Shown: positions 37,937 through 56,685 of the stretch, one piece after another
Layout of the letters: each line of letters starts with the position of its first letter
How positions within the stretch are numbered: position 1 is the first letter of the stretch
Assembly: GCA_032251515.1 (NCBI GenBank)
Contig: JAVVDU010000010.1
Span: 5,244 to 69,243, forward strand
DNA from: Gemmatimonadota bacterium
GTDB lineage: Bacteria; Gemmatimonadota; Gemmatimonadetes; Palauibacterales; Palauibacteraceae
DNA: 64,000 nucleotides
Reading direction: 5' to 3'
Position numbers and translations under genes: made by a program
The notes under the pieces: generated by a model
The model's input: only the letters and a program-made list of their open reading frames with translations
Database searches by the model: none
Told to the model about the DNA's origin: nothing

Positions 37937-38457
37937 CGGGCCGCCTCCAGTCGCGCGAGCAGGAGCCGGAGGGCGCCGTCCACTGCCGCCGCACGCACGG
38001 CCTCCCGCCCGCCGTCGGCACGGAGGAGTCGCGCCTCGGCATCGTCGCACCCCGGCCCGGCGACGGCGAGCCACACCGTCCCCACGGGCTTGCCCGGCGA
38101 TCCTCCTCCCGGACCGGCCACGCCGGTCACGGCCAGCGCCCAGTCGGCCCGCGCGGCCCGCCGGGCGCCGCGGGCCATGGCGCGCGCCACCTCCTCCGAC
38201 ACGGCACCCCGGACGCGCAGGATTTCCGCGTCCACCCCCAGCAGATCGGACTTGAGACCGTCGGCGTAGGCGATGATTCCGCCCACGAACCCGGTCGAGG
38301 CGCCGGGCACCGCGGTGATCGCGGCTCCCAGCGCACCTCCGGTGCAGCTCTCCGCGACCGCCAGCGTCGACCGTCGTCCGGCGAGGCGTGCGAGGACGGT
38401 CCGGACCAACGGGGCATGGGACGATTCCCGCGGCCCGGGAGCGGCCCCGGAGCTCAC
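37933..38457 (-). CDS. pncC: CinA C-terminal domain protein (nicotinamide-nucleotide amidohydrolase PncC family)
   Basis: [17 protein letters not shown]... then [12 protein letters not shown]. Confidence 0.85.
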
Positions 38458-40024: not shown

Positions 40025-40612
40025 TCACATCTCCCGGCGTCCCGTGAACGCCTCGGCGATGGTCACTCCGTCCGCGTACTCCAGGTCTCCACCGACTGGC
40101 AGACCCCGTGCCAGCCGGGTGACGCGCAGGCCATCCAGGTCCGCCGCGAGGCGGTGCAGGTACGCCGCCGTCGCCTCGCCCTCCACGCTGGGGTTGGTGG
40201 CGATGATGAGCTCCCGCACGTCACCCCCCAGCCGTCGCATCAGCGAGGCGATGTTCAGCTCGTCCGGTCCGATCCCGTCCAGCGGCGACAGGTGGCCGCC
40301 CAGCACGTGGTACCGGCCCCGGAACTGCCCCGCACTCTCGATCGCCGCGATGTCGGACGATTCCTCCACCACGCAGATCGAGGCCGCGTCGCGCCGCGGG
40401 CTCCGGCACAGCTCGCAGGGGTCCGCGCCGCTCAGGTTGCCGCACTCCGAGCAGGGCCGGACCTCGTCGACCACCCGCTCGATCGCCCGCGCCAGGCGGC
40501 GCGCCTCCTGCGGAGGGGCCTTGAGCAGGAAGTAGGTCAGCCGCTGCGCCGTCTTGCGGCCGATCCCGGGCAGTCGCCCGAACTCCTGGACGAGGGATTC
40601 GATCGCCGACAC
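40025..40612 (-). CDS. recR: recombination protein RecR
   Basis: HhH LPGIGRKTAQRL, C4 zinc finger CSECGNLSGADPCELC, and a Toprim domain. Confidence 0.9.
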   Translation of the reverse strand: MSAIESLVQEFGRLPGIGRKTAQRLTYFLLKAPPQEARRLARAIERVVDEVRPCSECGNLSGADPCELCRSPRRDAASICVVEESSDIAAIESAGQFRGRYHVLGGHLSPLDGIGPDELNIASLMRRLGGDVRELIIATNPSVEGEATAAYLHRLAADLDGLRVTRLARGLPVGGDLEYADGVTIAEAFTGRREM

Positions 40613-40628
40613 GTGCGCGATCGCCCCC

Positions 40629-40961
40629 TCAGCCCAGCAGGGAGCCGAGGCCCGGCAGCGGCATGCCGCCGGCCGCCTTGCGCATCTCCGTCTCCAGCAG
40701 CTCCCGCGCGCGCCGCTGCGCTTCCGATACCGCCGCCAGCACCAGGTCCTCCAGCATCTCCACGTCTGAGGGGTCCACCGCGGAAGGGTCGATCCGGATC
40801 GTCCGGATGCTTCCCTTTCCGTCGGCCGTCACCTCCACGAGGCCCCCTCCCGTGGCGGCCGTGACCGTCTCCTTCTCGAGCCGCTCCTGGGCTTCCGCCA
40901 TGCGCGACTGCATCTGCTGGCCGAGCTGGAACAGCTGCTGGATATCGTTCAGGTTCTTCAC
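40629..40961 (-). CDS. ybaB: YbaB/EbfC nucleoid-associated protein
   Basis: MKNLNDIQQLFQLGQQMQSRMAEAQERL... typical YbaB. Conserved dnaX-ybaB-recR order. Confidence 0.9.
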   Translation of the reverse strand: MKNLNDIQQLFQLGQQMQSRMAEAQERLEKETVTAATGGGLVEVTADGKGSIRTIRIDPSAVDPSDVEMLEDLVLAAVSEAQRRARELLETEMRKAAGGMPLPGLGSLLG

Positions 40962-40968
40962 CCCTCCA

Positions 40969-42720
40969 TCACTCCTTGAGCTCGAGGTCCAGGGTTTCTA
41001 CCGCCTGCCGCAGTCGTGGGTCCGTCTCCATCCACCGGCGCAGTTTCTGGTCCCGCGCCGCCTCGGCCGTCATGCGACGCGGCCCGTCCCCGGCGTTCAG
41101 CTCGAACACGAGGTCCGCGGGCTCGAGACCCAGCCGGGCGCCGAGCTCCCGCCGGAGCCCGTCCGATCGGGCCGGGTCCCCCAGGAACTCGTCCAGGTCG
41201 GTGACGAGGCCGCCCGGGACCTCCAGCCGCACCGTGGAGCCATCGAGCCCCTGGATCGTGGCGCCCCGCAGGCCGATCGCGGCGCCCCGCAGGCTGCGGC
41301 CGCGCACCGCCTCCAGGGCGCCGCGCCACGCCTCGTGCAGCGAGCCGGCGCCCGCCCCCCCCGCCGGTTCCGCGGCCCGGTCCGCCGCCTGCCCGGTGGC
41401 CGGCTGCGCTGCCGGCTCCGGCGGCGGATCCGCCTTCGGACGGGCGCGCGATGGCGGCCCGTCGGCTTCCACGGGCCCCGGTCGCGACGCGGCCGGAGCG
41501 GGCTCCGACCGGCCGCGCGGCGACCGGGGCGCGGCACGGGGGGGCGTTCGGCGCGCCCGCGTGGGCTCGCTCCCGCCCTCCAGCAGGCCCAGCAACTCGT
41601 CCAGCCCCACGATCGCGTCCACGCTGGCGAGCCGCAGCAGCAGCATCTCGACCTGGATCCGGGGCTGCGAGCTCCGCCGCAGCCGCCCCGAAGCCTCGAA
41701 TTCCGCCGCGGCGGCCAGCATGCGAAGCAGCTCCTCCACGGAGAACCGGTCGGCGGCCTCCCGGAACGCGGTCCGCGACTCCGGCGCGAGCTCGGCGGTG
41801 TCCGCCTCGGGGTCGAGCCGCAGGGCCAGCAGGACCCGCAGCGCCTCGCCGAGGCCGCGGGCGAACTCCGCCAGGTCGTATCCGTCATCGAGGAGGCCCT
41901 GCACGAACGGGAACACGCTGGCCCGGTCGCGCTCCGCGACGCGCGCGAACAGCTCCAGGTATCGCTCCTCCTCGACGAGTCCCAGCAGCCGTCGCACGTC
42001 CTCGGTCCGTACCTCCGAGCCGGAGAACGAGAGTACCTGGTCGAGCATCGACAGGGCGTCGCGCACGCCCCCGTCCGCCCGGCGCGCGATCGGCAGGAGC
42101 GCGCCCTCCTCTGCCTCGACCCCCTCCAGGGCGAGGACCTCGCGCAGCCGCTCCACGAGCTCCGGTACCGTCACCCGACGGAAGTCGAACCGCTGCACGC
42201 GCGACAGCACGGGCGCCGCGGTCTGCCGGATCTTCTGCGGCTCGGTCGTCGCGAAGACGAAGATCACCCGCGGCGGCGGCTCCTCCAGGATCTTGAGCAG
42301 CGCATTCCACGCTTCCCGGGTGAGCATGTGGGCCTCGTCCACGATGTAGATCTTGTGGCGGTCTTCGTCCGACGGAGCGTACATCGCCCGCTCGCGCAGG
42401 TCCCGCGCATCATCCACGCCCCGGTGGCTCGCCGCGTCGATCTCCACCACGTCCACCGCCGTGCGGCCGGCCCAGATCCGCTCGCAGGACTCGCACGTGC
42501 CGCACGGCTCGCCCGCCGATCGGGCCTCGCAGTTCAAAGCCATGGCGAGAACGCGGGCCGCGGTGGTCTTGCCGATGCCGCGCGGGCCGCAGAACAGGTA
42601 GGCGTGCGCGGCGCGCCCCTCCTCCACGGCGGCCCGGAGGGTCCGGGACACGTGATCCTGGCCGATCAGCTCGGAGAAATGGCGCGGGCGGTGGCGGCGT
42701 GCGAGCGCTGTGCGATACAT
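40969..42720 (-). CDS. dnaX: DNA polymerase III subunit gamma/tau
   Basis: Walker A GPRGIGKTTAARVLA, zinc module CGTCESC, Walker B YIVDEAHML, sensor motifs, and a Pro/Ala-rich tau linker. Confidence 0.9.
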   Translation of the reverse strand: MYRTALARRHRPRHFSELIGQDHVSRTLRAAVEEGRAAHAYLFCGPRGIGKTTAARVLAMALNCEARSAGEPCGTCESCERIWAGRTAVDVVEIDAASHRGVDDARDLRERAMYAPSDEDRHKIYIVDEAHMLTREAWNALLKILEEPPPRVIFVFATTEPQKIRQTAAPVLSRVQRFDFRRVTVPELVERLREVLALEGVEAEEGALLPIARRADGGVRDALSMLDQVLSFSGSEVRTEDVRRLLGLVEEERYLELFARVAERDRASVFPFVQGLLDDGYDLAEFARGLGEALRVLLALRLDPEADTAELAPESRTAFREAADRFSVEELLRMLAAAAEFEASGRLRRSSQPRIQVEMLLLRLASVDAIVGLDELLGLLEGGSEPTRARRTPPRAAPRSPRGRSEPAPAASRPGPVEADGPPSRARPKADPPPEPAAQPATGQAADRAAEPAGGAGAGSLHEAWRGALEAVRGRSLRGAAIGLRGATIQGLDGSTVRLEVPGGLVTDLDEFLGDPARSDGLRRELGARLGLEPADLVFELNAGDGPRRMTAEAARDQKLRRWMETDPRLRQAVETLDLELKE

Positions 42721-42918: not shown

Positions 42919-42948
42919 AAGCTAGATCCGGGGGGATCGGCCGTCAAA
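42919..42948 (-). promoter_or_regulatory. sigma70-like promoter for ffs
   Basis: Minus strand: TTGACG - 17 nt - TAGCTT, placed ~7 nt upstream of the inferred SRP RNA 5' end. Confidence 0.45.
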
Positions 42949-42996
42949 CGCCGCCGGCCCGGCAGCGGACGGTCGGCCCCGTCGGCCCGGGGGGCG

Positions 42997-43377
42997 TCAG
43001 GCCTCGTCGGCCCGGAACGCGTCGGGCCAGTGTTCCACCAGCGGTCGGCCGCCCGGCGCGACCACGACCTCCGCCACGTCGAACCGGAACTCGCCCCCCG
43101 TCCCCGGGTGGCCGGCGATCCACGCGCCGGCCGCCGCCACGAGGTGCCGCCGCTTCCGCCGGTCCACGGCGTCGGCCGGGCGTCCCCCCGGGCCGAGCCG
43201 GCGCGTCTTCACCTCCACGAACGCCACCGTGCGGCCATCCCGGACGACGAGGTCGATCTCGCCGCGCCCCGCGCGCCAGTTCCGCGCCACGACCCGGATG
43301 CCCCGCCGCTCGAGCCACGCCGCGACGATCGCCTCGCCCCGTGCTCCCGTCGATTCCACCCGACCCTCCCGGTCCAT
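42997..43377 (-). CDS. yraN: YraN family (UPF0102) predicted endonuclease
   Basis: GEAIVAAWLERRGIRVVARNWRAGRGEIDLVVRDGRTVAFVEVKTR. Confidence 0.85.
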   Translation of the reverse strand: MDREGRVESTGARGEAIVAAWLERRGIRVVARNWRAGRGEIDLVVRDGRTVAFVEVKTRRLGPGGRPADAVDRRKRRHLVAAAGAWIAGHPGTGGEFRFDVAEVVVAPGGRPLVEHWPDAFRADEA

Positions 43378-43478
43378 CGTCCCCCGCCGGCTCCCGGCCA
43401 GTGGTGCACGGGAGACGGCACCGGGTCGTCATCGGAGCCGGCGGAAGGAAAGGCGCCGGGACGGTCGGGCCCGATCGG

Positions 43479-44303
43479 TCAGGTCGGGAACCGCCATCCC
43501 TCGCGGGCGACCTCCGTCCGGCCGCGCCAGCCCGCCGCCGCCAGGAGCGACGGGAGATCGGCGGCGGTCCGGAACGCGGGATAGACGTGCGTCAGGAGAA
43601 GGAGCCCCGGCGCCGCCCCGGCCGCGACGGCCGCGACGGAGGCCGGGGAGAGGTGGTTGTCGACCGCGTGGGAATCCGGCAGGGCGCATTCGCACACGAG
43701 GAGATCGGCCCCGCGCGCGAAGGACGCGAGCTCGGGGCAGGGACCGGTGTCCCCCGTGTAGACGATCGTCCCCGGGCCGCCCGCGAGCCGCAGCGCCTGG
43801 CTCTCGGCGGTGTGCGGAACGGGCTGACCGCGCAGCGTCACCGCCCCGCCGAGCACCGTGTCGGCGCCGGGGCGCATCTCGCAGATCTCGACCGGGAACC
43901 CCGGGTCGGTCACGAACGGGCCGAACGCCGCCGCCATGCGGTCGACCAGGTCCCGGGTGCCCCGGGGCCCGTGGATCCGCAGGGGCTCCTCCCGCGTCTC
44001 GGGCAGGAGTGCGTGGGTGAGGGCGAACAGCAGCCCCGGCATCGCGCCGACGTGGTCGGCGTGGAAGTGCGTGAGCACGAGGTCGGTGATCCGCGACCAC
44101 GGCAGGCCGAGGCGGGCCATCGCCTGCAGCGCCCCGGGCCCGCAGTCGAGCAGGGCCCGTACGGGACCGCTCTCGAGCCAGTAAGCGGAACAGGCGCGGT
44201 CGGCCTCCGGCACGACGGTGCCACATCCGACCACGACGAAGCGGTCGCCCGGTGCAGCGGGCTCCGGAACCGGCGCCGGGGGGCGGCCGCCGGCCTCCGT
44301 CAC
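43479..44303 (-). CDS. MBL-fold metallo-hydrolase, RNase Z/ElaC-like
   Basis: GTG start in a GTGA overlap with the smc stop. FVVVGCGTVVPEADRACSAYWLE...LLDCGPGA...LVLTHFHADHVGAMPGLLFAL (HxHxDH), and a C-terminal LLLTHVYP. Confidence 0.75.
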   Translation of the reverse strand: MTEAGGRPPAPVPEPAAPGDRFVVVGCGTVVPEADRACSAYWLESGPVRALLDCGPGALQAMARLGLPWSRITDLVLTHFHADHVGAMPGLLFALTHALLPETREEPLRIHGPRGTRDLVDRMAAAFGPFVTDPGFPVEICEMRPGADTVLGGAVTLRGQPVPHTAESQALRLAGGPGTIVYTGDTGPCPELASFARGADLLVCECALPDSHAVDNHLSPASVAAVAAGAAPGLLLLTHVYPAFRTAADLPSLLAAAGWRGRTEVAREGWRFPT

Positions 44304-47300
44304 GCGACCTGTCCCCGGGGCAGGTCGCGGATGTCCATCGCCACGAGGGTGCTCACGCCCGGCTCCTGCATCGTCACGCCGTAGATGTGGTCGGCCGCCT
44401 CGATGGTGCGGGGGTTGTGCGTGATGACGATGAACTGGGTGCTCTCCTTGAACCGCTCGAGCATCGCCGTGAAGCGTCCGATGTTCGACTCGTCCAGCGG
44501 CGCGTCCACCTCGTCCATCACGCAGAAGGGGCTCGGCTTCGCCAGGTAGATCGCGAACAGGAGCGCCAGCGCGGTGAGCGCCCGCTCCCCGCCCGACAGC
44601 AGGTGGATCCGCTGCGTGCGCTTGCCGCGCGGGCTCGCCGAGATCTCGATCGGCGAATCGAGCGGATCGGCCGGGTCCTCGAGCCACACGTCCGCCTCGC
44701 CTCCCTCGAACAGCGTCACGAAGATGCGCTGGAAGTTCTCGCGCACCTGCTCGAACACCTGCTCGAACGAGCGGGACGCCGCCTCGTTGATCCGCTGGAT
44801 CGATCCGAGAAGGTCGTCGCGCGCCGACACCAGGTCCTCCCGCTGCCCCTGGAGGAAGTCGAGCCGCTCCTTCTCCTCGTCGTACTCGGCCGCCGCCAGG
44901 AGGTTGACCGGACCCAGCGAGGCGAGCGACTCCCGCACTTCCTCGAGCTCGGTCCGCCAATCCTCGGGAGACCCTTCGGCCGGACGTTCCACGCGCGCCC
45001 GCAGGCTCTCGAGTTCCTCCTCCCATTCGGCCTCGATGCGCTCGCGGATCGCCGCCCGCGCCCCGTGCAGGCGCGTCGCCTCCAGCTCCAGCTCGTGCAG
45101 CCGGTCGGCGGTCTGCCGCTCCCGCTGCCGCAGGGCGCGCAGCGCCGTCTCGCGGCGCTCCACCTCGTCGCGGCGCTCCGCGAGCCCTTCCGTCGCCCGC
45201 GCGACCTCGTCGGCGAGGGCCCGCCGCTCGCCGAACAGGCGCTCCAGCGATTCCTCGCTCGCCGCCAGCGCGGCGTGGCCCGCCTCGATGGCAGCCTCCC
45301 GCTCGGCCTTCTCGGCGGCCAGGCGCCGTTCCCGCTCCGCGAGCTCTTCGTCCCGCTCCGCGAGACGCCGCGTCCGCTCGGCCGCCGCCGCCGCTTCGGC
45401 CTCTGCCCGGGCGATCCGCAACCGCGACTCCTGCAGCGCGGCGCTGCCGGCCTCCCAGTCCCCGGTCGCCGTGGCCAGTTCCGCGCGGCAGTCGGACAAC
45501 GACGCCTCGACCCGCTCGCGTTCCGTCCGCAGCTCCGCGAGCCGCTCCGAGCCCGCCTCCTGCTCCGGCCCCCCGCGGCCCAGCATTTCCTCGAGCTCCA
45601 CGATCCGACCGTCGAGCTCGGCCGACAGCCGCCGGGCCCGCTCGAGTCCCGCGGCCGCGTCGTCCCGCGCCTCGACGGCGGCGCGAAGCCGGACCGATGC
45701 CTCCTCCAGCGCCCGGTCCGCCGCGGCGGCTTCCGCCGCGAGGCGCCGGGTCCGTGCGGACTCCGCCTCGACCTCGCCCTGTGCCTCTTCCACGCGGCGC
45801 TCCAGGTCGTCGAGGCGGCGCCGGAGCTCGTCCAGCTCCGCCCGGCGCCGCAGGGCCCCGCGCCCGCCCGCCGGCCGGCCGATCCGGACCGCGCCGGCCG
45901 CGTCCTGTCCGCTGCCGTCGGGCGCCACCCAGGGCCCGGTCGCCGGCCCGAAGCCCTCGGCGCGGGACTCGACCCCCGCCAGCAGGGCCCGCACCCAGGG
46001 CGCCCCGGCTCCGCGCGCCTCCACGCGCGCCAGGAGTCCCCCCTTTCCGGCCCGCGCGACCGGGCCGGGATCCAGGGGAAGCAGCACGACGCCCTCCCCT
46101 TCGCCCCGCGCCTGCAGCCAGGCGCGAACGCGCTCCACCGTCCGCCAGTCATCCACCACGACGGCGTGCAGGAAGCTCCCCAGGTGTGCCTCGACCGCCG
46201 CGACGTCGGCGGCTGGGACGCGCACGCAATCGGCCAGGACGCCGTGCGTGCCCGGCGAGGCGGCCGGGTCCTCCAGCAGGGCCGTGACGACGGACGGGAG
46301 GTCGCGCCCCGAGTCGAGCAGCGCCGCGAGCGCCGCGGCCCGTTCACGCGCCGCCGAAAGCTCGCCGGCGAGAGCCGCGTGCCGCTCGCGCGCCTCCCGC
46401 TCGCCGTCCCGTCCGGTCCGCTCCGCCTCCCGCGCCGCCTCGAGTCGAGCCTCGAGCTCCGCCCGCTCCTGCGCCGCGGCGGCCGTCCGGGCCTCGTGGG
46501 CGGCGAGATCCTCCGCGTACCGGTCCGCGCCCGCGCGCAGCTCGTCGCGCTCCGCCCGCCGGCGCTCGAGCTCCCGCTGCCGTTCGTGCTGCCGCTCGCG
46601 CAGCGCTTCCGCCTCCGCCCCGGCGGACCCGATCCCGGCGATGAGCCGGTCCAGCTCGGCACGCGCCTCCGCCTCGAGCGCGGCGAGCTCGGAGCGCCGC
46701 GCGCGCAGCCGGCCCACGCGCTCGTCCAGGCCGGCCTCCTCCTCCCGCAGGCTGCGCAGCGCCGCTTCGGCCTCCGTCGCGGCAGCGGCGGCTTCCTCGC
46801 GCTCCTCGGCGATCCGGCGCCGGCCGGCCGCCATCTCGTCCCGCTCGGCGGCCAGTCCGTCGAGGCGCGCGCGTGCCGTGGCGATCCGCTCCTCGGTCAG
46901 CAGCCGCTCCCGCTCCAGGGCTTCGAGGCGCCCCCGCACCTCCTCCAGGCGGCTCGCGGCAGCCGTCCGGTTCCGCTCCCGCTCCACCAGGTCGAGGCGC
47001 AACGCCTCGACCTCGGTCTCCTCCACCCCGAGGCTGCTCTCCGCCTCGGGCCGCACGCGCCGTGCCTCGGCGAGGGCCTCGTCGACCTCCCGCATCCGGT
47101 CCTCGATGGCGGCGAGGCGCGCGTCGGCCACCGCCACCTCGAGCACCAGGCGGCGCTCGCGCAGCTCCTGCCAGCGGCGCGCCCGGCCACGCTGGCGGGC
47201 CAGCGAACGGACCTTGCTCTCGACCTCACCGATCACGTCCTCGAGCCGGCGCAGGTCATGCTCCGCCTGCTCCAGCCGCCGCAGGGCGGTCCGCCTGCGG

Positions 47301-47815
47301 TCCTTGTAGCGGCCGACCTCCGCCGCCTCCTCGAACAACGAGCGCCGCTCTTCGGCCCGGTCGCTGAGAATCGCGTCGATCATCCGGCTCTCGATGATCG
47401 AGTAGGCGTTCGCTCCGAGCCCCGTGTCGCGGCACAGGTCCTGGATGTCGCGCAACCGAACGGCGCGCTCGTTCAGCGTGTAGACGCTCTCGCCGCCACG
47501 CAGCACCGTGCGTCCGATCACCACCTCGGCGTGCGGAACGGAGAGCAGGCCGTCCTCGTTGGAGAGGGCGAGCTGGACCTCGGCGCGGTGGACCGGCTTC
47601 CGCCCCGACGTGCCCTGGAAGATCGCCTCCTCCATCCGGCTGCCCCGGATCGCGGACGGCCGCTGCTCGCCGAGCACCCAGCGCAGGGCGTCGGAGATGT
47701 TCGACTTGCCGCACCCGTTCGGGCCGACGATGGCCGTGATCCCTTCCCGGAAGTCGATGTGGATCCGGTCGGCGAACGACTTGAAGCCGTGCAGGGTCAA
47801 GGACCGGACCTTCAC
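44300..47815 (-). CDS. smc: chromosome segregation protein SMC
   Basis: Start VKVRSLTLHGFKSFADRIHIDFREGITAIVGPNGCGKSN (Walker A). Long coiled coils, a hinge, the C-terminal signature LSGGERALTALALLF, and Walker B VMDEVDAPLDE. 1171 aa. The upstream 470 codons of the 1641-aa ORF are a non-coding extension. Confidence 0.9.
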   Translation of the reverse strand: MKVRSLTLHGFKSFADRIHIDFREGITAIVGPNGCGKSNISDALRWVLGEQRPSAIRGSRMEEAIFQGTSGRKPVHRAEVQLALSNEDGLLSVPHAEVVIGRTVLRGGESVYTLNERAVRLRDIQDLCRDTGLGANAYSIIESRMIDAILSDRAEERRSLFEEAAEVGRYKDRRRTALRRLEQAEHDLRRLEDVIGEVESKVRSLARQRGRARRWQELRERRLVLEVAVADARLAAIEDRMREVDEALAEARRVRPEAESSLGVEETEVEALRLDLVERERNRTAAASRLEEVRGRLEALERERLLTEERIATARARLDGLAAERDEMAAGRRRIAEEREEAAAAATEAEAALRSLREEEAGLDERVGRLRARRSELAALEAEARAELDRLIAGIGSAGAEAEALRERQHERQRELERRRAERDELRAGADRYAEDLAAHEARTAAAAQERAELEARLEAAREAERTGRDGEREARERHAALAGELSAARERAAALAALLDSGRDLPSVVTALLEDPAASPGTHGVLADCVRVPAADVAAVEAHLGSFLHAVVVDDWRTVERVRAWLQARGEGEGVVLLPLDPGPVARAGKGGLLARVEARGAGAPWVRALLAGVESRAEGFGPATGPWVAPDGSGQDAAGAVRIGRPAGGRGALRRRAELDELRRRLDDLERRVEEAQGEVEAESARTRRLAAEAAAADRALEEASVRLRAAVEARDDAAAGLERARRLSAELDGRIVELEEMLGRGGPEQEAGSERLAELRTERERVEASLSDCRAELATATGDWEAGSAALQESRLRIARAEAEAAAAAERTRRLAERDEELAERERRLAAEKAEREAAIEAGHAALAASEESLERLFGERRALADEVARATEGLAERRDEVERRETALRALRQRERQTADRLHELELEATRLHGARAAIRERIEAEWEEELESLRARVERPAEGSPEDWRTELEEVRESLASLGPVNLLAAAEYDEEKERLDFLQGQREDLVSARDDLLGSIQRINEAASRSFEQVFEQVRENFQRIFVTLFEGGEADVWLEDPADPLDSPIEISASPRGKRTQRIHLLSGGERALTALALLFAIYLAKPSPFCVMDEVDAPLDESNIGRFTAMLERFKESTQFIVITHNPRTIEAADHIYGVTMQEPGVSTLVAMDIRDLPRGQVA

Positions 47816-49350
47816 CACGGCCTCCCGCGCCGGGATACCAGCCGCGGCTCCTGGCCCGCGGCTCGCAGCATCTCGCCCAGCGGAGCCGCCGCCTCCTCGG
47901 ACTCGAAGGCGCCGGCGTACAGCGCGTACACCTCCTGCCCTTCCTCTCCGGCCGGCACGACGTAAGCGATCCCCGGGGAAAGGCCCGCCTCCTCGAGACG
48001 GCGCACGGCCGCCCGGCCCTCGTCCGCGGTGTGGAACACGCCGACGAGCCACGCGAGACCGACGGGCCGCACGTCCCACGCCCGCGCCCGCTCCTTGTGT
48101 CCCGCCTCCACGAGCTCGCGCATCAGCGATTCCCCCGCGGTCCGCTCCGCCCGCGCCCCGGCCAGCACGCGGTAGTAGACCCGCCCCCGGATCGGCGTGG
48201 GCGCCACGAACAGCGCCGCCGCACGGCCGCCCTCCCGCAGCTGGCGCGCCGCGTCCTCGGGCCGCGCGAAGCTCGCGATCAGAACGGAATACGGCAGCTC
48301 GGGGGCGGCCGGGCCCGCGGGCAGCTCCGGCGGAGCGAACTCCGCCGGGCCCTCTCCCGGATCCGGGTCGTCCGCGGCGTCCGCTCCCGCGGCGGCCCGA
48401 CCGGCGGACGGCCCGCCAGCCTCGCCCGGACCGGACGCATCCGCCACGACGGCGCCTTCCGGCGCGCCATCGCCGTCCCCGCTGCCCCCGGCCAGCAACG
48501 CCCACGCCAGCACTGCCCCGACGGCGAACACGGCGACGACGATGGGCAGCTGCCACCCGAATCGGCGGCGCGGTGGTCGGTCGGTCGCCCCCGCGCGCCC
48601 CTCCGGCGCGGCGGCGCCTCCCGCCGCGCGGCCCTCTCCCGCGGCGGCGGCGTCTCCCGGGCCCGTGGCCGCCCTCATCGCCTCCGCTTCGGCCCCGGGC
48701 CGAGGAGCGCCCGCCGGCCGCTCGACCCGCGCGAGGAGCGGCGCACCTGCCAGCAGGGCCGGTTCCTTCACGTCGCCGATCGCGATGCAGCCGTCCAGGG
48801 GAAGGTCGAAGTCCGGATCCGGTCCGTACTCGCCGGCCAGGTCCTCCTCCGCCACGTAGAGGAGCACCGTGCCGCCCCGTTCGGCCACCCGGCGCAGCAG
48901 CCGATGGAATGCCGGAACCTCGCGCAGGCGGCCGAGGGGGAGGGCCCGGGCACCCGCCGGCAGATACGCGAACGCCTGGCGCGGCGCGGAACGCGCGGCC
49001 CGCGACAGGGGAAGGTCTCCGGCGAGCGAGCGGGTGAGACCGGGCGCGTCCACCGCGTCCATCAGACCGTCCAGCTCCTCCGCGCCCGGCACCGTGCAGG
49101 CGAGAAACGTGCGGCCCCGCCGCCGGCCCACCAGGTCGGCGAGGCCCGCGGCCACGCCCGCGGACCAGGCCCCCCCGCCCCGCTCGCGGACCAGCGCCAC
49201 CACCGAGGCGGACGCGGGAAGCCACGGGATGGCCTCGCCTGCCGGCTCGGCCCCGGGCTCCGGTCCGCGCTCCGGTCCGCGCTCCGTCACGGGCCCCGAT
49301 CGGGACCCCGGCCCGGCCACCGGCTCAGGCATCCGGCCCGACTCAGGCAT
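47812..49350 (-). CDS. SPOR-domain protein with a cytoplasmic degenerate ParA/MinD-like domain (bitopic)
   Basis: Stop overlaps the smc start. The N-terminal region SVVALVRERGGGAWSAGVAAGLADLVGRRRGRTFLACTVPG aligns by eye to a ParA/MinD deviant Walker A in which both lysines are lost. TM segment LPIVVAVFAVGAVLAWALL. C-terminal tandem SPOR-like repeats (YSVLIASFARPEDAARQL...; YALYAGAFESEEAAAPLGEML). Confidence 0.55.
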   Translation of the reverse strand: MPESGRMPEPVAGPGSRSGPVTERGPERGPEPGAEPAGEAIPWLPASASVVALVRERGGGAWSAGVAAGLADLVGRRRGRTFLACTVPGAEELDGLMDAVDAPGLTRSLAGDLPLSRAARSAPRQAFAYLPAGARALPLGRLREVPAFHRLLRRVAERGGTVLLYVAEEDLAGEYGPDPDFDLPLDGCIAIGDVKEPALLAGAPLLARVERPAGAPRPGAEAEAMRAATGPGDAAAAGEGRAAGGAAAPEGRAGATDRPPRRRFGWQLPIVVAVFAVGAVLAWALLAGGSGDGDGAPEGAVVADASGPGEAGGPSAGRAAAGADAADDPDPGEGPAEFAPPELPAGPAAPELPYSVLIASFARPEDAARQLREGGRAAALFVAPTPIRGRVYYRVLAGARAERTAGESLMRELVEAGHKERARAWDVRPVGLAWLVGVFHTADEGRAAVRRLEEAGLSPGIAYVVPAGEEGQEVYALYAGAFESEEAAAPLGEMLRAAGQEPRLVSRRGRPW

Positions 49351-50893
49351 CCGGCTCGATTCCCGTCACCCAGCTCTGCAGCCGGCGCTCGCGCTGGAGC
49401 TGCCGGGCGGCCGCGTCCGCCTCGGCCCGGGTGGCGAACGGGCCCACGAGGCCGCGATGCCAGGTCTCGCCCGCGAGGTCGCGGATCGTCTGGACCGCGA
49501 CCGGAAACCCGGCCTCGGAGAGGTCCGTCACCAGCCGCTCGATCCCTTCCGGCTGCCGCGCGGAACCGACGATCGCGTAGTAGCCCGGCGGCGGTCCCGT
49601 CTCGCCGCCCTCCGCCGGCGGCAGTTCCTCCGGCGGGCCCGCGCCGTCGGGCGCCGTCCGCTCGCCCTCCGCCGCCGCGAGCGCGTCCCGCGGGGCGCGA
49701 CGGCCGGGATCCGCCGGCGGTCCGCCCGCTTCCGCGACGTCAGGGCGCGGGACGGGCGGCACCCAGCGGACCGGAACCCACCAGGCGTCGGCCGGGGCCT
49801 CGAGCGGGCGGGAGCCGCCGCCCGGCGCCACGAGCCGCAGTCCGTCCGCCGTGCGGGAGAGCACGCCGCCATCCGGCAGGCCGAGCGGCAGGTCGCCGGC
49901 CCACGTGCCCCTGACCTCCACGGGCAGCCCCCCGGAGACGGGCAGCCGCCAGATGGCCTCCCCGTCCGTGACGAGCAGCGCCTCGCCGAACAGCGACGGC
50001 CGGATCTCGCGAGCCGTCGCCGGAAGCGTCGCGAGGCGCCGGACGGTGAACGCGAACCGGTTCACCGCGAAGATGGCCGGGGGATCCGCGATGGCGGCGT
50101 AGATCTCGTGCGAAGAGGGCGATGCGGCCAGCGCCGTGATCGGGCCGTCGAACCTGGCCCTCCCGACCGGCTCCAGCGACTCGACCGCCAGCGCGACGAG
50201 CGCCCGCGGGTCATCGTCATCCCGGAAGACCAGCCGTCGTCCCCAGCCCGCCACGAGCCCCGGAGGGGGGGCGCCCACGCCGCCCGTTTCCGGCGGCGCG
50301 GTCGCATCCGAATGCGGGATGACCTGGAGCGTCGCGCGGCCCTCCGCCTCCGCCAGCACCGCCACCCCGTCGTGGATCGCGCCGGCCCACAGGACGTTCC
50401 CGGACGCCTCGTGCTCCCACCGGCGATCGCCTGCGAGCGCCAGCAGGTCCGGCGCCCCGGCCGCGGCCCAGGCGACGGCCCCTTCCCCGGAGGCGCGCAG
50501 CCGGAGCTCGCCCCGCGCGATCCGGCCCAGTTCCGTGACCGAATCGCGGGCGACGTCGTACCGGAAGACGCGGCCGGCCGGCCCGGCCAGCGCCACGAGC
50601 GCTCCCTCGAGGTGCCGCGCCTCGGCGACCGGCGGCAGGCGGGTGCCCCCTTCGCGCACCGTCCGGTCGGGCGACGCGAGATCCCGCAGCTGTGCCGGTC
50701 CTCCGTCCCGCGGCAGGGCGAGCAGACCCCACTCCTCGGCAGCCCGGCCGACCACGAGAGCCGTGCCTTGCGGAGCCGGTGCGTCGGCCCGCCGCTCCGG
50801 GCGCTGGTCGGACCGGCCGTCGCAGCCCGCGGCGGCGAGGACGGCGGCCGCCACGGCCAGGATTCCGTGCCTTCGTGCAGTTCGTGGTGCCAA
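49343..50893 (-). CDS. SPOR-domain lipoprotein
   Basis: TTG start. Lipoprotein signal RRHGILAVAAAVLAAAGC, a repeat-rich central region that may be a beta-propeller, and a C-terminal SPOR domain (YYAIVGSARQPEGIERLVTDLSEAGFPVAVQTI...GLVGPFATRAEADAAARQLQRE). Overlaps the next gene by 8 nt. Confidence 0.55.
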   Translation of the reverse strand: MAPRTARRHGILAVAAAVLAAAGCDGRSDQRPERRADAPAPQGTALVVGRAAEEWGLLALPRDGGPAQLRDLASPDRTVREGGTRLPPVAEARHLEGALVALAGPAGRVFRYDVARDSVTELGRIARGELRLRASGEGAVAWAAAGAPDLLALAGDRRWEHEASGNVLWAGAIHDGVAVLAEAEGRATLQVIPHSDATAPPETGGVGAPPPGLVAGWGRRLVFRDDDDPRALVALAVESLEPVGRARFDGPITALAASPSSHEIYAAIADPPAIFAVNRFAFTVRRLATLPATAREIRPSLFGEALLVTDGEAIWRLPVSGGLPVEVRGTWAGDLPLGLPDGGVLSRTADGLRLVAPGGGSRPLEAPADAWWVPVRWVPPVPRPDVAEAGGPPADPGRRAPRDALAAAEGERTAPDGAGPPEELPPAEGGETGPPPGYYAIVGSARQPEGIERLVTDLSEAGFPVAVQTIRDLAGETWHRGLVGPFATRAEADAAARQLQRERRLQSWVTGIEPDA

Positions 50894-51027: not shown

Positions 51028-54000
51028 TCAGAAGATCTCCCCCACCGACACGGACCAGATCCCGTCGCCCGGCCCGCGCGAACGCCCCGTGGGAACGGCG
51101 TAGTCGAGCCGCAGGATCGCGAAGAACAGGTTCAACCGGATGCCCGCGCCGTAGCTGGCCAGCGGCGCCCGCCGGCGCACGATGTCGTCGTCCCGGTCCC
51201 GCTGCAGGACCAGCGACGACCGTCCCGGCGTCCACGCCACGCCCAGGTCGAAGAACAGCGTCGCGTCGAGCGCCGGGAAGTTCAGCGGCAGCCAGGCATC
51301 CTTGCGGGCGTTGAGGAGCGGCAGACGCATCTCGGAGTTCAGCAGCAGGACGCTCGACCCGATGAGTTGCTCCTGCGCCGGACAGAACAGGTCGGAGCCG
51401 CTGCGCTCCCGGGAAGCGACGCATTCGTCGAGCTCGAAGGAGCCGAGATCGTATCCGCGGAGGAAGTACGGGCCGCCCCACGCGAACGTGAACTCCTCCG
51501 CGTCGTCGCCCGCCGTCGTCCCGACGCGTGTGAACGAGAGCAGCCGCTGCGCGAACACGAGGGAGCCGGGGAGCGGCGTGTAGTGCCGCAGGTCCGCTGT
51601 CAGGTCGGCCAGGTTCAGGTCGCCGGCCGACAGGGACGCGCCGAGGCGGAGCCGGCGGCCGGCCACGGCGCCCGTGAATCCGGGCAGCGAGTTGTCGAAC
51701 ACGTACGCGATGGTCGGAACGAGGAAAGCCCGCGTCGGTCCGTCGAGCACGGTCGTGAAGCCGTCGCCCCGCGTGGCATCGAAGCCCCGCAGGACGAGGT
51801 CCGTCTGGATCGAAGAGGCCTCGAGGCCGAAGTCGAAACGGGCGAACGAGCTGAGCGGCGCCTGCGCGAGGATTCCCACCGAGCGGAACTGGTCGCGCTG
51901 GAACAGCTCGAACTGTCCGACCGAGCCGGGGCGGCCGGGCACCTCGCCCGATCGGCGGCCGAAGAAGCGGAAGAAGGGGAACTGGCGGAAGCTGACCCCC
52001 AGGTTCACCCGGTTCTTCAGGTACGTGTACGAGGTGAACACCTGCGCGTCGTCGAACGACCCCTGGACCGCGGCGGCGATCCACAGGTTGTGGTTGCCCA
52101 GCATGTCGGACAGGGAGACGAAGGAGCCCCCGCTCACGGAGTTTCCGAAGAACCCGCCCACCTGCGCGCCGATCGTGGGCCGGCCCACGATGTCGGGGCT
52201 CAGCCGGGCCGTGTAGTCCCGGCTGGTGAAGGCCGCCGTGTCCGGCAGAGCGAGGCTCGCCGAGTCGAGGAGGGCCCGGACCGACCGGGGATCTTCGGCC
52301 GCGGCCACCGCGAGGGCCTCACCGTCGCCACCGAGGTCCGAGCGCCGGAAACCCCCGTCGGCGCGGTAGAACGAGGACGGCTCGCCCCCGTCGCCCCGCG
52401 CCCCGTCGCCGTCCACCACCCCACCGCCGTCCGCCGCCCCACCGCCACCGTCGCCGCGCCGCTCCACGAGACGGATCCGTCCGACCTGGTCCGCCGCCGT
52501 CGGGGTGGAGCCCGGAGCACCCGCGGGGCCGGCCTTCTCCGTCGGCCGGTCCGCCACGTAGATGTTGAATCCGGCGTCCTCGAAGTAGGAGAACGCCAGG
52601 CGGTCCGCCGCACGGGCCCACGTGAGACCGGGACTCGTGAGCAGCGCCCCCTCGCCCATGGCGCCGGTGAGGCTGTGCGTCAGGCGCGTCGTCCGTCCGG
52701 CCCCCCGGTCGTGCAGGTAGACGTCGAACGCGCCGGCCCGCGTCGCCAGGTACGCCACGACCGAACCGTCCGGGGACCAGGCAGGATCGATCGCCGTTCC
52801 GCCCTCCTGGCCGGGCAGAAGGCTCTTCTCTCCCGTCGCCGGATCGAGGATCGCGATCCGCAACGGTCCGAACACGAGGCGTTCGAAGTCCGACTCCGGC
52901 GTGTCGTCCGTCGCGTAGGCCAGCAGACGCCCGTCCGGCGACCAGGCGGGATGGAGCTGCGAGAACCGATCCGCCGTCAGACGCTCGAGGCGGTCCGTTC
53001 CGACCTCCCAGGCGTAGAGGTCGCTGATCCCGCCGCGCAGTCCCGTGAACGCGATCCGCCTTCCGTCAGGCGACCAGGTCGGCGACTGGATGCCGTTCAG
53101 GTCCGGCGTCCAGCGCGACACGACCTCGCCCGTCTCCGCGTCGGCCACGATGAGCGCGTCCCGCCCCCCCGCGGCCGCCACGAAGGCCACCCGCCGGCCG
53201 TCGGGCGCCCACTCCGCCGCCGACGTCAGGTACCGCAGGCTCTCGAAGCTCCCGCTGCGGGCCGCGGCGGCGAGGCGCCGCAGGGGACGACCGGTCTCGA
53301 CGTCGGCCACCCACAGATCGAAGAAGCCGTGCAGGTCGTGCGCCCGGTCCGACAGGTAGACGAGCCGCGTGCCGTCGGGCGACAGGGCGGGCGCGATGTA
53401 GCTCGGCGAGGACGCGCGCCCCGTCGGCAGGGCGTGGTCGGTCACGCGCCGCGCCACGGTCCGCACGTCGCCGGCCCGCCGGATCGACGGCACGTGGGCC
53501 GCCCGCACCGCGTCGTGCCACTCCCGGGTCAGGTCTTCCAGCCCGATGCCGAGGGTCCGCTCGAAGGCGCCCCGGATCCCGAGGGCGCCGGCGCGCTTCA
53601 GCAGGAGCCCGATCGCCTCGTCGCCCCAGCGGGCGCCGATCCAGTTCCACAGAGACTGACCGAAGCGGTAGGAGAGGAAGTCGTGGAACCGATCCATCTC
53701 CTCGATCGTGCGCAGGTAGCCCGACAGGGTCGCATCGCGCATCCAGGCGGACGTCTTGGCGTCGATGCGGCCGACCGACAGGTACTCCGCCATTCCCTCC
53801 ATGAACCACAGGCTGGGCACGAAGGCGAACGGCGATGCGCTCTGCTCGACCACCCCGCGGCGCAGGATGTCGAACTGGAACGCGTGGACGATCTCGTGTC
53901 CGAGCACGTGCTCGAACTCCGCCCACGATCCCGTCAGGGGGAGCAGCACCCGGTCGCGCAGCGACTCGGTGACGCCGCCGGTGGACTCGTCGACGTGCCC

Positions 54001-54315
54001 CCCGAGCACGTTCGTCTGCTGGAAGTCCGTCTGGGAGGCGTACAGGATGATCGGCTTGCGGCGGGCGAACTCGTGGTCGAGGATCCGGCTCAGGCGCCCG
54101 TAGATCCGCTCCGCCATGCGAGCCGCCTGGACCGCGGCTTCGCGCTCTTCCTCGTAGAAGTAGATGTCGAAGTGGGCCGTCTCGATGATCCGGAAGTCGC
54201 GCGGCCGGTACTGGACGCGGTTCCGTGACGACTGGGCGCCGGCCGGCGGCGGAAGCAGGAGCGCGGCGAGTCCGGCGAGGAGGGCCGTGACGGGGGCGGC
54301 ACGGCCGGCGGTCAC
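51028..54315 (-). CDS. secreted multidomain protein: HExxH zincin-like N-domain + TolB/PD40 beta-propeller repeats + C-terminal Omp85 (surface-antigen) beta-barrel
   Basis: Signal peptide ...LLLPPPAGAQS. HEIVHAF HExxH motif. Repeated SPDGxRxAF/Y WD40-like blades. A Gly/Asp linker. C-terminal Omp85 motifs (LRGYDLGSFE..., LFFDLGVAW, GAGIRLNLFFAILRLDYAVP), ending in F. Confidence 0.7.
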   Translation of the reverse strand: MTAGRAAPVTALLAGLAALLLPPPAGAQSSRNRVQYRPRDFRIIETAHFDIYFYEEEREAAVQAARMAERIYGRLSRILDHEFARRKPIILYASQTDFQQTNVLGGHVDESTGGVTESLRDRVLLPLTGSWAEFEHVLGHEIVHAFQFDILRRGVVEQSASPFAFVPSLWFMEGMAEYLSVGRIDAKTSAWMRDATLSGYLRTIEEMDRFHDFLSYRFGQSLWNWIGARWGDEAIGLLLKRAGALGIRGAFERTLGIGLEDLTREWHDAVRAAHVPSIRRAGDVRTVARRVTDHALPTGRASSPSYIAPALSPDGTRLVYLSDRAHDLHGFFDLWVADVETGRPLRRLAAAARSGSFESLRYLTSAAEWAPDGRRVAFVAAAGGRDALIVADAETGEVVSRWTPDLNGIQSPTWSPDGRRIAFTGLRGGISDLYAWEVGTDRLERLTADRFSQLHPAWSPDGRLLAYATDDTPESDFERLVFGPLRIAILDPATGEKSLLPGQEGGTAIDPAWSPDGSVVAYLATRAGAFDVYLHDRGAGRTTRLTHSLTGAMGEGALLTSPGLTWARAADRLAFSYFEDAGFNIYVADRPTEKAGPAGAPGSTPTAADQVGRIRLVERRGDGGGGAADGGGVVDGDGARGDGGEPSSFYRADGGFRRSDLGGDGEALAVAAAEDPRSVRALLDSASLALPDTAAFTSRDYTARLSPDIVGRPTIGAQVGGFFGNSVSGGSFVSLSDMLGNHNLWIAAAVQGSFDDAQVFTSYTYLKNRVNLGVSFRQFPFFRFFGRRSGEVPGRPGSVGQFELFQRDQFRSVGILAQAPLSSFARFDFGLEASSIQTDLVLRGFDATRGDGFTTVLDGPTRAFLVPTIAYVFDNSLPGFTGAVAGRRLRLGASLSAGDLNLADLTADLRHYTPLPGSLVFAQRLLSFTRVGTTAGDDAEEFTFAWGGPYFLRGYDLGSFELDECVASRERSGSDLFCPAQEQLIGSSVLLLNSEMRLPLLNARKDAWLPLNFPALDATLFFDLGVAWTPGRSSLVLQRDRDDDIVRRRAPLASYGAGIRLNLFFAILRLDYAVPTGRSRGPGDGIWSVSVGEIF

Positions 54316-54777: not shown

Positions 54778-56685
54778 TCAGTCCTCGATCTGGTAGGCCA
54801 CGGCCCACGCCCCCGGCCCCACGTGGACGCCGAGCACGGCCGTGGCCGGCCCGGCGAGGATCTCCACGGGATCGTACCGCGTCTCGAGCTCCCGCACGAT
54901 CCGGTCCGCCATCTCCGCGGCCGCGAAGTGCGCCACGCCCAGCCGGTAGCGGCGCGCCTCGAGCAGGCGCTCGTCCAGCAGCCCCAGCACGCGCTCCAGC
55001 ACCGCCTCGCTGCCGCGCACCCGGCCGATCGCCGTCAGGCGGCCATCGTCGCTCAGGCTGAGGATCGGCTTCAGGTCGAGCCGCTCGCCGAGCCACGCTC
55101 GGGCCCGGCCGATCCTCCCCGAGCGGGCGAGATACTCCAGCGTTTCGACCGTGAACAGGATGTTCGACCGGGCGCGGACGCGCTCCAGCTCGCGGAGCAC
55201 CTCCGGCAGCTCGCGTCCCTCGTCGAGCAGCTCGACGGCGCGCACGGCCAGCAGCCCGGCGCCCAGCGAGCCGGACCGCGAGTCGAAGGCCGCCCCCTCG
55301 ACGCCGGCCGTGTCCCGCAGCGCGGCGGCGCCCGCGCCGTACGTGCCCGACACCGCCGAGCTGAGGAAGATGCCCAGGACCGACTCCGCGCCTCCGGCGA
55401 TGCCGCGCCGGTACGCCTCCGCGAACGCGGCGGGAGCGGGCTGCGAGGTGGACGGCTCCGGGGCCCCCTCGCGCCGTATCAGGTCGTAGAGCGCCGCGGC
55501 GTCGATGTCCACCCCGTCCCGGTACGAGATGTCGCCGACCACGACCTGGAGTGGCACCACGGCCACTCCGTGCCGTTCGGTCCACTCGTGCGGCAGGTCA
55601 CAGGACGAGTCCACGACCACCGCCACGTGCGTCGTCGCGCCGGCCAGCGACGTGTCCTCGATCCGCTCGGAGACGACTTCCCCGAACCGCGACAGCGTGG
55701 CGACCACTTCCTCCGGCCGGTCGGCGTGCACGTGCACCTTGGCGAGGTCCCCCGCCCGCAGGACGATGAGCGATGTGCCCTGCCCGCCGAGGGCCGCACG
55801 GAGCTCGGCCTCCGGGGGAAGCGCACCGCCGCGGATCGCGACCTGGGTGCAGTAGCGGCCCTCGTCCGCACCCACCCCCGACTGGCGGGCGAAGTACAGG
55901 CCGCCGGCAGCCGGCGCCTCCTCGAGGTGGTCGTCGCGGATCTTTCCCTCGATGTAGTGGAGGATCCCCTCGAAGAAGCTGACGAAGCCCTTGGCGCCGG
56001 CGTCCACCACCCCCGCCTGCCGCAGGGCGGGAAGCATGTCGCGCGTGCGCTGCAGCGAGCGCTCGGCGGCGTCCTGCATCTCGTGCAGCCACGCGTGGAA
56101 GTCGTCACTGCCCGAGGCGGTCCGCCGCCGGGCCTCGGCGGCCATGTCACGCGCCACCGTGATGATGGTGCCCTCGCGGGGGCGCTCGAGGACCTCCTGC
56201 AGGGCGGCGGCGGCGCCGGTCAGCGCCTCGGCGACCTCGCTCGATCCCGCCCGGACCTGGTCACGCAGGCCGGAGGCGAAGCCGAGCAGAAAGCGGGAGA
56301 ACAGCATCCCGGAGTTGCCCCGCGCCGCGAGCACGCTGGCCTCGGCCGCCCGTTCCGCCACCTCGGAGAGCGAGCGGCTCTCCAGCGGGCGCACCGCCTC
56401 GGCCACGGAGCTCAGGGTGAGCGCGAGGTTCGTTCCCGTGTCGCCGTCCGGGACGGGAAACACGTTGATCCGGTCCAGTTCCTCGCGCTGCCGGCGGACG
56501 TTCCGGACTCCCGCCAGGATCACCCGGCGGAGGCGCCGCCCATCGAGGTAGGCGATGCGGCGCGGCGAAGGACCTTCCCCGGTCGTGGGCGCCGGGCCGG
56601 GCTCCGGCGATGCGGCGGACCCGGAGTCCGGGCGTGCCGGCTCTCCGGGCATCCCACCATCGGGTGCGAGCGGCGTTTCGCCCAC
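54778..56685 (-). CDS. DAK2 (DhaL/FakA-N-like) domain - DegV (FakB-like) fusion protein
   Basis: N-terminus RINVFPVPDGDTGTNL (DAK2). C-terminus HVAVVVDSSCDLPHEWTERHGVAVVPLQVVVGDISYRDGVDIDAAALYDLI...PSTSQPAPAAFAEAYRR...FLSSAVSGTYGAG (DegV). Start uncertain; ATG at 56652 is plausible. Confidence 0.75.
   Translation of the reverse strand: MGETPLAPDGGMPGEPARPDSGSAASPEPGPAPTTGEGPSPRRIAYLDGRRLRRVILAGVRNVRRQREELDRINVFPVPDGDTGTNLALTLSSVAEAVRPLESRSLSEVAERAAEASVLAARGNSGMLFSRFLLGFASGLRDQVRAGSSEVAEALTGAAAALQEVLERPREGTIITVARDMAAEARRRTASGSDDFHAWLHEMQDAAERSLQRTRDMLPALRQAGVVDAGAKGFVSFFEGILHYIEGKIRDDHLEEAPAAGGLYFARQSGVGADEGRYCTQVAIRGGALPPEAELRAALGGQGTSLIVLRAGDLAKVHVHADRPEEVVATLSRFGEVVSERIEDTSLAGATTHVAVVVDSSCDLPHEWTERHGVAVVPLQVVVGDISYRDGVDIDAAALYDLIRREGAPEPSTSQPAPAAFAEAYRRGIAGGAESVLGIFLSSAVSGTYGAGAAALRDTAGVEGAAFDSRSGSLGAGLLAVRAVELLDEGRELPEVLRELERVRARSNILFTVETLEYLARSGRIGRARAWLGERLDLKPILSLSDDGRLTAIGRVRGSEAVLERVLGLLDERLLEARRYRLGVAHFAAAEMADRIVRELETRYDPVEILAGPATAVLGVHVGPGAWAVAYQIED

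Follow-up and report, generated by a model that had tools for sequence, protein, structure and literature searches.

In bitopic division proteins of the FtsN, DamX, and DedD type, a cytoplasmic N-terminus is followed by one transmembrane helix and by a flexible linker that leads, in the periplasm, to SPOR at the C-terminus; septal targeting via denuded glycans is expected from established SPOR biology (see also PMC7822825). We analyzed a protein with this layout that is encoded directly upstream of smc in a 64-kb stretch of DNA from a Gemmatimonadota bacterium (contig JAVVDU010000010.1; hereafter, the window, to which all positions refer). The locus is an operon of four genes on the minus strand encoding a SPOR-domain lipoprotein, the bitopic SPOR protein, SMC, and a hydrolase of the metallo-beta-lactamase (MBL) fold (Table 1). 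Unlike FtsN, DamX, and DedD, in which the cytoplasmic tail is short or disordered, the bitopic protein has a folded, predicted pseudo-ATPase domain of ~180 residues (hereafter, the N-domain) and two SPOR domains, and its gene is coupled to smc and is not in a division cluster. SPOR was the sole Pfam or NCBIfam match of the bitopic protein, and no similarity to the essential domain of FtsN was detected. The bitopic SPOR layout is known; what is new is the pseudo-ATPase module on a bitopic SPOR division protein, within a conserved smc operon.

The closest described relatives of the N-domain are the bacterial tyrosine kinases (BY-kinases) Wzc, Etk, BceF, VpsO, and CapB/CpsD, which are its best match by both profile and structure and, like it, are membrane associated. 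A central PGL...G...LPAG region is shared by the N-domain family and the BY-kinases. Unlike the BY-kinases, the N-domain has no Walker A, A', or B residues, no tyrosine cluster, and no polysaccharide gene context, and it lies N-terminal to the transmembrane helix, whereas the BY-kinase domain is C-terminal to a co-polymerase with two transmembrane segments. The more distantly related MinD, ParA, FlhG, and BcsQ require ATP-dependent dimerization via a deviant Walker A motif, both lysines of which are missing from the bitopic protein. Membrane attachment of the MinD type is through an amphipathic C-terminal helix, in contrast to the transmembrane helix of the bitopic protein.

Chains of proteins that tie a chromosome-organizing factor to the divisome include MatP-ZapB-ZapA in Escherichia coli and ZapT-ZauP-ZapA in Caulobacter. 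These are conceptual analogs of the system considered here, but they are unrelated to it, wholly cytoplasmic, and devoid of a peptidoglycan-binding element. Another likeness is offered by CpsD of Streptococcus pneumoniae, a ParA-like protein that binds ParB and is found at the division site (PMC4574921), and by the link to RocS in pneumococcal chromosome segregation (bioRxiv 10.1101/359943): there, a BY-kinase/ParA-fold protein that a membrane partner keeps at the division site communicates with the segregation machinery. CpsD differs from the bitopic protein in that it is an active autokinase that signals through its phosphorylation state, is anchored via CpsC and not by SPOR domains, has ParB as its partner, and is not encoded with smc.

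In a literature search, we encountered neither a SPOR protein with a domain of the MinD/ParA/BY-kinase fold, nor a SPOR-smc operon, nor an account of Gemmatimonadota division proteins, in agreement with the original prediction, made from the sequence of the window, which did not recognize the arrangement as a described one. Little is known, outside model phyla, of how septum closure and chromosome segregation are coordinated, and the phylum-wide family described here combines a putative reader of septal peptidoglycan with a pseudo-enzyme of the MinD/ParA/BY-kinase fold, hard-wired to smc.

Architecture of the bitopic SPOR protein

All genuine genes between 43.4 and 50.9 kb of the window, the G+C content of which is 70-79%, are on the minus strand, and successive genes of the operon overlap by 8, 4, and 4 nucleotides (nt) in 5'-3' order. 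The GTG start of smc at 47815 is preceded, 5 nt upstream, by a Shine-Dalgarno-like GGGAGG, and GTG 44303 is the sole start ahead of the conserved core of the MBL protein. The 8-nt overlap depends on the start chosen for the bitopic gene, for which other in-frame starts are present at 49332, 49320, and 49290; the NCBI model of the protein (RRA92_04355; 492 amino acids, 100% identical) begins 20 codons further downstream, and the N-terminal stretch of ~40 residues is not conserved among homologs. When the reading frames and junctions were read again, all four elements named by the original prediction were found on the minus strand where it had placed them, together with both GTGA overlaps; the 8-nt overlap that it also reported is present, subject to that choice of start.

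From the N-terminus, the bitopic protein begins with the pseudo-ATPase domain, which a disordered linker joins to one transmembrane helix; a second disordered linker, in the periplasm, leads to the two SPOR domains. The cytoplasmic linker (residues ~213-262) comprises about 50 A/G/P/R-rich residues of low complexity, and the periplasmic one about 60 residues rich in A, P, G, E, and D. The transmembrane helix is the sole strongly hydrophobic segment (top Kyte-Doolittle window, 2.6) and contains W283, which is almost invariant among homologs. It is flanked by PRRRFG on the N-terminal side and by GSGDGDG on the C-terminal side. With RRR before the helix and acidic residues after it, the positive-inside rule predicts an N-in/C-out topology. 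The whole protein scored 36 bits against the SPOR family PF05036 (gathering cutoff, 21 bits), and each of its two SPOR domains exceeded the cutoff when scanned alone. Thus, the layout first read from the sequence, with a single transmembrane helix and periplasmic SPOR repeats, held up by hydropathy and domain scans, as did the presence of SPOR domains in both proteins encoded upstream of smc.

To characterize the fold of the N-domain, we aligned residues ~40-235 of 30 family members and used this alignment for profile searches and AlphaFold2 (AF2) modeling. A Pfam scan of the 30 sequences at E <= 10 returned nothing meaningful. Among sequences of the Protein Data Bank (PDB), the profile matched the BY-kinases BceF (E = 1e-9), Wzc (4e-7), VpsO (6e-4), and CapB (1.6e-3) and, more weakly, E. 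coli MinD (1.8e-3), FleN (0.1), and ParA (0.6). The AF2 model, of high confidence (predicted local distance difference test [pLDDT], 93.1; predicted template modeling score, 0.87), showed an alternation of beta strands and alpha helices, and a Foldseek search of the PDB with this model retrieved BY-kinase domains at the top (E ~5e-6, template modeling score ~0.6), followed by MinD and FlhG. By profile and model, the N-domain is assigned to the MinD/ParA superfamily (SIMIBI alpha/beta fold), with BY-kinases as the nearest branch. The superfamily is the one that had been proposed from a by-eye alignment, but the nearest relatives are BY-kinases and not ParA or MinD proper. Neither Pfam nor NCBIfam has a model of the N-domain, which would deserve a family definition of its own.

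The nucleotide-binding site has been lost in this domain, as became apparent from active-site columns in an alignment of 224 family members to the N-domain model. In the HMMER alignment, the Walker A GK[ST] of BceF falls opposite A-W-S (W62), and the window protein has RERGGGAWS where the deviant Walker A would read KGGxGK[ST]; this agrees with the original by-eye alignment, which had also noted, rightly, that both P-loop lysines were replaced. For the catalytic lysine, the replacement is family-wide: this column contains W in 129 members, a gap in 31, and R in 28, whereas K does not figure among the eight most frequent residues. The DxD of Walker A' lies opposite A-C-T, and the column of its first aspartate contains N (100 members), D (60), or S (34), with C in the window protein. 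The Walker B aspartate of VpsO is opposite Y165, in a column occupied by Y, F, L, V, H, or C across the family. The P-loop is not conserved across the bitopic family, and the C-terminal tyrosine cluster of BY-kinases has no counterpart either, there being no tyrosine in residues 213-265 that follow the N-domain. Because the motif residues are lost across the 224 members and not just in the window protein, the whole family can be classed as pseudo-ATPases or pseudo-kinases, as opposed to a case of recent decay in one genome. The same losses rule out an active ATPase or kinase: to judge from the aligned sequences, the N-domain cannot act as either and must be a nucleotide-independent binding module. 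It represents a clear case of the fold of a P-loop positioning ATPase being reused as a nucleotide-free scaffold.

Family distribution and linkage to smc

Full-length homologs of the bitopic protein, 78 in an index of 5.8 billion proteins, have an identical layout, and all those that are named come from Gemmatimonadota. A profile search of 1.84 billion representative sequences, clustered at 50% identity, yielded 503 clusters at E < 1e-10, so that the family includes at least this number. Among the 150 matches listed, most are 430-590 amino acids long and begin with the domain, and six of the ten members sampled with Pfam end in SPOR. The distant members include Longimicrobiales and Gemmatimonadales, and every source name is again Gemmatimonadota. 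In the source annotations, these proteins appear as "hypothetical," "SPOR domain-containing," or "DedD/DamX" (at JGI, "DedD" or "DamX").

The protein encoded by the smc gene of the window aligns from residue 4 to 1162 with positions 3-1181 of the prokaryotic SMC model TIGR02168 (SMC_prok_B; 879.4 bits, cutoff 567.35); in Pfam, SMC_N spans residues 3-1155, and the SMC hinge match is weak (34 bits). ScpA and ScpB were not found among the genes scanned in the window, which covers 64 kb of a larger genome, so that the original statement that smc is not flanked by scpA and scpB is true within the window. In Bacillus subtilis, smc belongs to an rnc-smc-ftsY cluster with scpAB elsewhere, and it is normal in other bacteria for smc and scpAB to lie apart. 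The lack of scpAB beside smc is not unusual and carries no weight. We also observed that the string LLARVE occurs both at the strongly conserved end of the N-domain (GAPLLARVERP, 48700-48730, minus strand) and in the SMC hinge (GGLLARVEARG, ~46.0 kb), probably a compositional coincidence.

A scan of one genome per species identified 24 loci, all in metagenome-assembled genomes of Gemmatimonadota, and further loci were obtained from contigs encoding distant members of the family and members retrieved by a second profile search. By tblastn, all 24 loci have the order SPOR lipoprotein, bitopic protein, SMC, followed by the MBL hydrolase wherever the contig reaches that far. Across the combined set, the bitopic gene immediately precedes smc, with its TGA stop overlapping the smc start as GTGA, TTGA, or ATGA, in 32 of 32 loci, among which SMC identity to the window protein drops to 39-41%. 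The recurrence of this synteny in related genomes, which the original prediction had named as a check, was thus observed across Gemmatimonadota.

The flanks of the pair are less constant. Related loci usually retain a longer collinear block that extends from FakA-DegV and PD40/Omp85 through to DnaX-YbaB-RecR, but the outer neighbors vary, with DnaX-YbaB-RecR, a TonB receptor, or DAHP synthase located downstream. In the Longimicrobiales locus (L028), no SPOR lipoprotein gene was called at the corresponding position, and a TonB receptor is encoded downstream. In the Gemmatimonadales loci, DAHP synthase takes the place of dnaX, and smc and the MBL gene are separated by an inserted gene for an S8 subtilisin-like peptidase (L030, 12846-15161; L031, 11885-14146; L032, 12062-14350), which leaves a gap of 1 nt to the smc stop and overlaps the MBL start by 4 nt. 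One of these loci (L032, 4105-7001) contains two tandem SPOR-lipoprotein genes ahead of the bitopic gene. The MBL gene is found downstream of smc in all loci of sufficient length, in Gemmatimonadales with the S8 peptidase gene in between. Because the flanks differ while the 4-nt overlap persists, the invariant core of the operon consists of the bitopic gene and smc, with the MBL gene close by in nearly all cases and the lipoprotein gene in most. The operon is conserved in, and specific to, Gemmatimonadota, and the bitopic-smc arrangement, being seen in 32 independent loci, is not due to chance.

Proposed role and alternatives

We propose that the bitopic protein is a septum-anchored adaptor co-produced with SMC; as a whole explanation of the locus, this is the reading that we slightly favor. 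It builds on the architecture of the protein, the dead nucleotide site, the topology given by the positive-inside rule, and the strict translational coupling with smc, all established here. The SPOR lipoprotein and the MBL hydrolase are common in the operon but less firmly part of it. By the established biology of SPOR domains in FtsN, DamX, and DedD, the periplasmic part would bind amidase-denuded glycan strands, concentrating the bitopic protein at the constricting septum, and such placement would put the dead-ATPase domain at the cytoplasmic face of the division site. There, the N-domain would recruit or restrain a chromosome-organization factor at the closing septum, the candidates being SMC or a partner associated with it, for example, ParB or ParA, with the outcome that nucleoid clearance would be coordinated with constriction. 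Engagement of a chromosome factor is suggested by the translation coupled with that of smc in every genome examined and by the CpsD precedent. It is the strict operon coupling that hints at the direct physical link between SMC and the septum that was the central claim of the original prediction, and direct binding of the N-domain to SMC, or to ParB or ParA acting with SMC, is a specific proposition that we consider doubtful.

If such direct binding occurs, the bitopic protein would be a transmembrane bridge that connects, within one polypeptide, the denuded peptidoglycan of the septum with the machinery that condenses the chromosome. It would constitute a device specific to Gemmatimonadota that senses the progress of the septum outside and clears or hands over DNA inside, a functional analog, made of different parts, of the MatP-ZapB-ZapA or CpsD-ParB-RocS linkages.

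Several considerations weigh against the adaptor proposal. Adjacency and translational coupling amount to co-expression, not contact, and the septal localization of the bitopic protein is assumed from its SPOR domains. The collinear block from FakAB and PD40/Omp85 to RecR is found in many genomes, so that some of the synteny is vertical inheritance. Collinearity is, however, a partial contributor and was rejected as the full explanation, given that the 4-nt overlap of the pair persists across orders with different flanks. Every smc gene analyzed here begins with M-K (NTG AAG), so that the start region itself supplies a TGA in the upstream frame and a 4-nt overlap is easy to evolve and to keep. 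At 47812-47835 on the minus strand, and at the corresponding junctions of loci L001-L028, the codons of the invariant R507 and G509 in the C-terminal R-x-G form a GGAGG- or GGAAGG-like run 5-7 nt before the smc start, and conservation of the bitopic C-terminus may partly reflect this ribosome-binding-site constraint. Scans of 42.5-51.5 kb for sigma-70 promoters and intrinsic terminators, which are uninformative at 75% G+C and in a non-model phylum, found none.

The N-domain also occurs apart from SPOR. Three family members (P0159, P0167, and P0217) share the N-domain but contain, instead of SPOR, an acidic E/D/P/A linker of 650-800 residues, one transmembrane segment, and a Cys-containing periplasmic domain of ~100 residues. 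In the one such locus examined (P0167; L029, 8001-11288), the gene adjoins those for an M48 peptidase and pilin-like proteins, not smc. Given these non-SPOR paralogs, one of them away from smc, the N-domain is not intrinsically an SMC module but a general cytoplasmic module of bitopic proteins of Gemmatimonadota, a further point against the proposal.

The main alternative to a septum-anchored adaptor, less probable in our view although a substantial one, is that the bitopic protein is an ordinary divisome SPOR protein, the Gemmatimonadota counterpart of FtsN, DamX, or DedD, which has no physical or functional tie to SMC and is co-transcribed with its gene only as one cell-cycle housekeeping gene with another. 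In that case, the cytoplasmic domain would bind FtsA, FtsZ, or a regulator of the MinC/MinD type. The N-in layout with C-terminal SPOR is the same, as reflected in the JGI labels "DedD" and "DamX," and the fold of the N-domain is also that of MinD, a protein that binds MinC and acts on FtsZ. Moreover, the region is a housekeeping block with genes for ribosomal proteins, dnaX, recR, and ftsH, and co-transcription of smc with functionally unrelated genes has a precedent in rnc and ftsY of B. subtilis. Yet, the two genes are fused by a 4-nt overlap in all 32 loci, down to ~40% SMC identity and with every other neighbor varying, which is tighter than expected of passive co-transcription, and outside the SPOR domains, Pfam and NCBIfam show zero sequence similarity to FtsN, DamX, or DedD.

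An improbable alternative is a pseudo-BY-kinase that regulates the synthesis of an envelope polymer at the septum, either pairing or competing with an active BY-kinase, a polysaccharide co-polymerase complex, or a peptidoglycan synthase, with the SPOR domains and the propeller lipoprotein confining this regulation to the division site. By sequence profile and structure, the closest relatives are BY-kinase domains, pseudo-enzymes often regulate active paralogs, and the neighbors include envelope proteins, namely, the propeller SPOR lipoprotein and the PD40/Omp85 outer-membrane protein. However, no polysaccharide-export or glycosyltransferase genes were present in the operon or among the window genes scanned, the tyrosine cluster is missing, the kinase-like, transmembrane, and periplasmic parts follow one another in the reverse of the Wzc order, and it is smc, and no envelope gene, with which the bitopic gene is invariably paired.

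That the reading frames and overlaps are artifacts of the very high G+C content of 74-79% (long spurious frames and chance starts) is refuted by the homologs and structures, to the point of being negligible: many long frames do overlap in all frames here, and the bitopic start is ambiguous, but all four products match curated families and have dozens to hundreds of homologs with the domain order kept, the AF2 models reach pLDDT values of 93 and 81, and the 4-nt overlaps recur in genes called independently in other assemblies.

Other operon members and neighboring genes

Table 1. Positions of the genes, junctions, and domains of the SPOR-smc operon
Feature	Positions	Strand	Details
SPOR lipoprotein gene	49343-50893	-	516 amino acids from TTG 50893
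Beta-propeller, lipoprotein	49766-50731	-	Residues ~55-376; all-beta model, block pLDDT mostly 85-97
SPOR domain, lipoprotein	49367-49591	-	Residues 435-509, PF05036 48.7 bits; 437-512 in AF2 model
Overlap, lipoprotein stop/bitopic ATG	49343-49350	-	ATGCCTGA, 8 nt
Bitopic protein gene	47812-49350	-	512 amino acids if the start is ATG 49350
Predicted MinD/ParA-superfamily (BY-kinase-like) domain without nucleotide-binding motifs	48694-49230	-	Residues ~41-219 of the bitopic protein
Single transmembrane helix, bitopic protein	48487-48555	-	Residues ~266-288, WQLPIVVAVFAVGAVLAWALLAG
SPOR domain 1, bitopic protein	48103-48291	-	Residues 354-416; PF05036 21.4 bits scanned alone
SPOR domain 2, bitopic protein	47845-48045	-	Residues 436-502; PF05036 25.4 bits scanned alone, best stretch
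Overlap, bitopic stop/smc start	47812-47815	-	GTGA; TGA stop inside GTG-A
smc	44300-47815	-	1171 amino acids
Overlap, smc stop/MBL start	44300-44303	-	GTGA
MBL-fold hydrolase gene	43479-44303	-	274 amino acids

AF2 modeling of the SPOR lipoprotein (pLDDT 81) revealed a signal helix, a disordered tether (residues 23-49), a beta-propeller (residues 55-376), a disordered linker, and the SPOR domain. The N-terminus, MAPRTARRHGILAVAAAVLAAAGC when read from TTG 50893, contains a lipobox-like LAAAGC in which the -3 residue is A instead of L, V, or I, and the candidate lipidated residue, Cys24, is kept in at least 90% of 38 aligned homologs (83 homologs were found in all). The propeller matched cd1 nitrite reductase, NirF, AztD, and YVTN propellers in Foldseek (E ~1e-10), and the profile of the lipoprotein matched the YVTN propeller 1l0q (E = 0.003); this likeness gives no specific hint of function.

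The MBL hydrolase matched PF12706 (Lactamase_B_2; 64.7 bits) and PF00753 (52.7 bits) and contains the HxHxDH motif in the form THFHADH. Against the RNase Z model TIGR02651, it scored 119.8 bits (cutoff, 292.95), with the best stretch covering positions 3-147 of 302, and it aligned end to end with the 253-residue cyclic-nucleotide phosphodiesterase model NF041851 at 107.9 bits (cutoff, 400). By these scores, the protein falls in the RNase Z/Apyc1-like branch, assignable to neither of the two families. The original label, "RNase Z-like," applies loosely (120 versus 293 bits), and the identity of the gene as a true RNase Z was rejected because the score is below the cutoff.

In the window and in most related loci, the SPOR operon is immediately preceded by a gene (51028-54315, minus strand) for a 1095-amino-acid protein in which PD40/Tricorn-like beta-propellers are joined to an Omp85 barrel at the C-terminus; POTRA domains were not detected in it. 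This is an unusual Omp85 architecture, and the protein may be a partner, in the envelope, of the lipoprotein with propeller and SPOR domains. A further gene (54778-56685, minus strand), kept in related loci, encodes Dak2, the FakA middle domain, and DegV in one polypeptide, an apparent FakA-FakB fatty-acid kinase fusion. On the other side of the operon lies the widespread dnaX-ybaB-recR cluster (40025-42720, minus strand), separated from the MBL gene by a 162-amino-acid open reading frame (42944-43432) that matched no family and is kept solely in the closest locus, L011. Farther away, in a stretch of 75% G+C, Pfam returned no match for the long open reading frames 33986-35071, 35125-37359, and 37459-38496 on the plus strand and 34706-36337 on the minus strand; GrpE (36270-37346, minus strand) and an aminotransferase (32791-33972, plus strand) are the only products identified near 33986-38496. 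Near the start of the window, a CdaA-type diadenylate cyclase is encoded beside FtsH and ExbB/ExbD/ExbD (5037-5900 and 6818-8836, both minus strand), an ordinary set of housekeeping genes.

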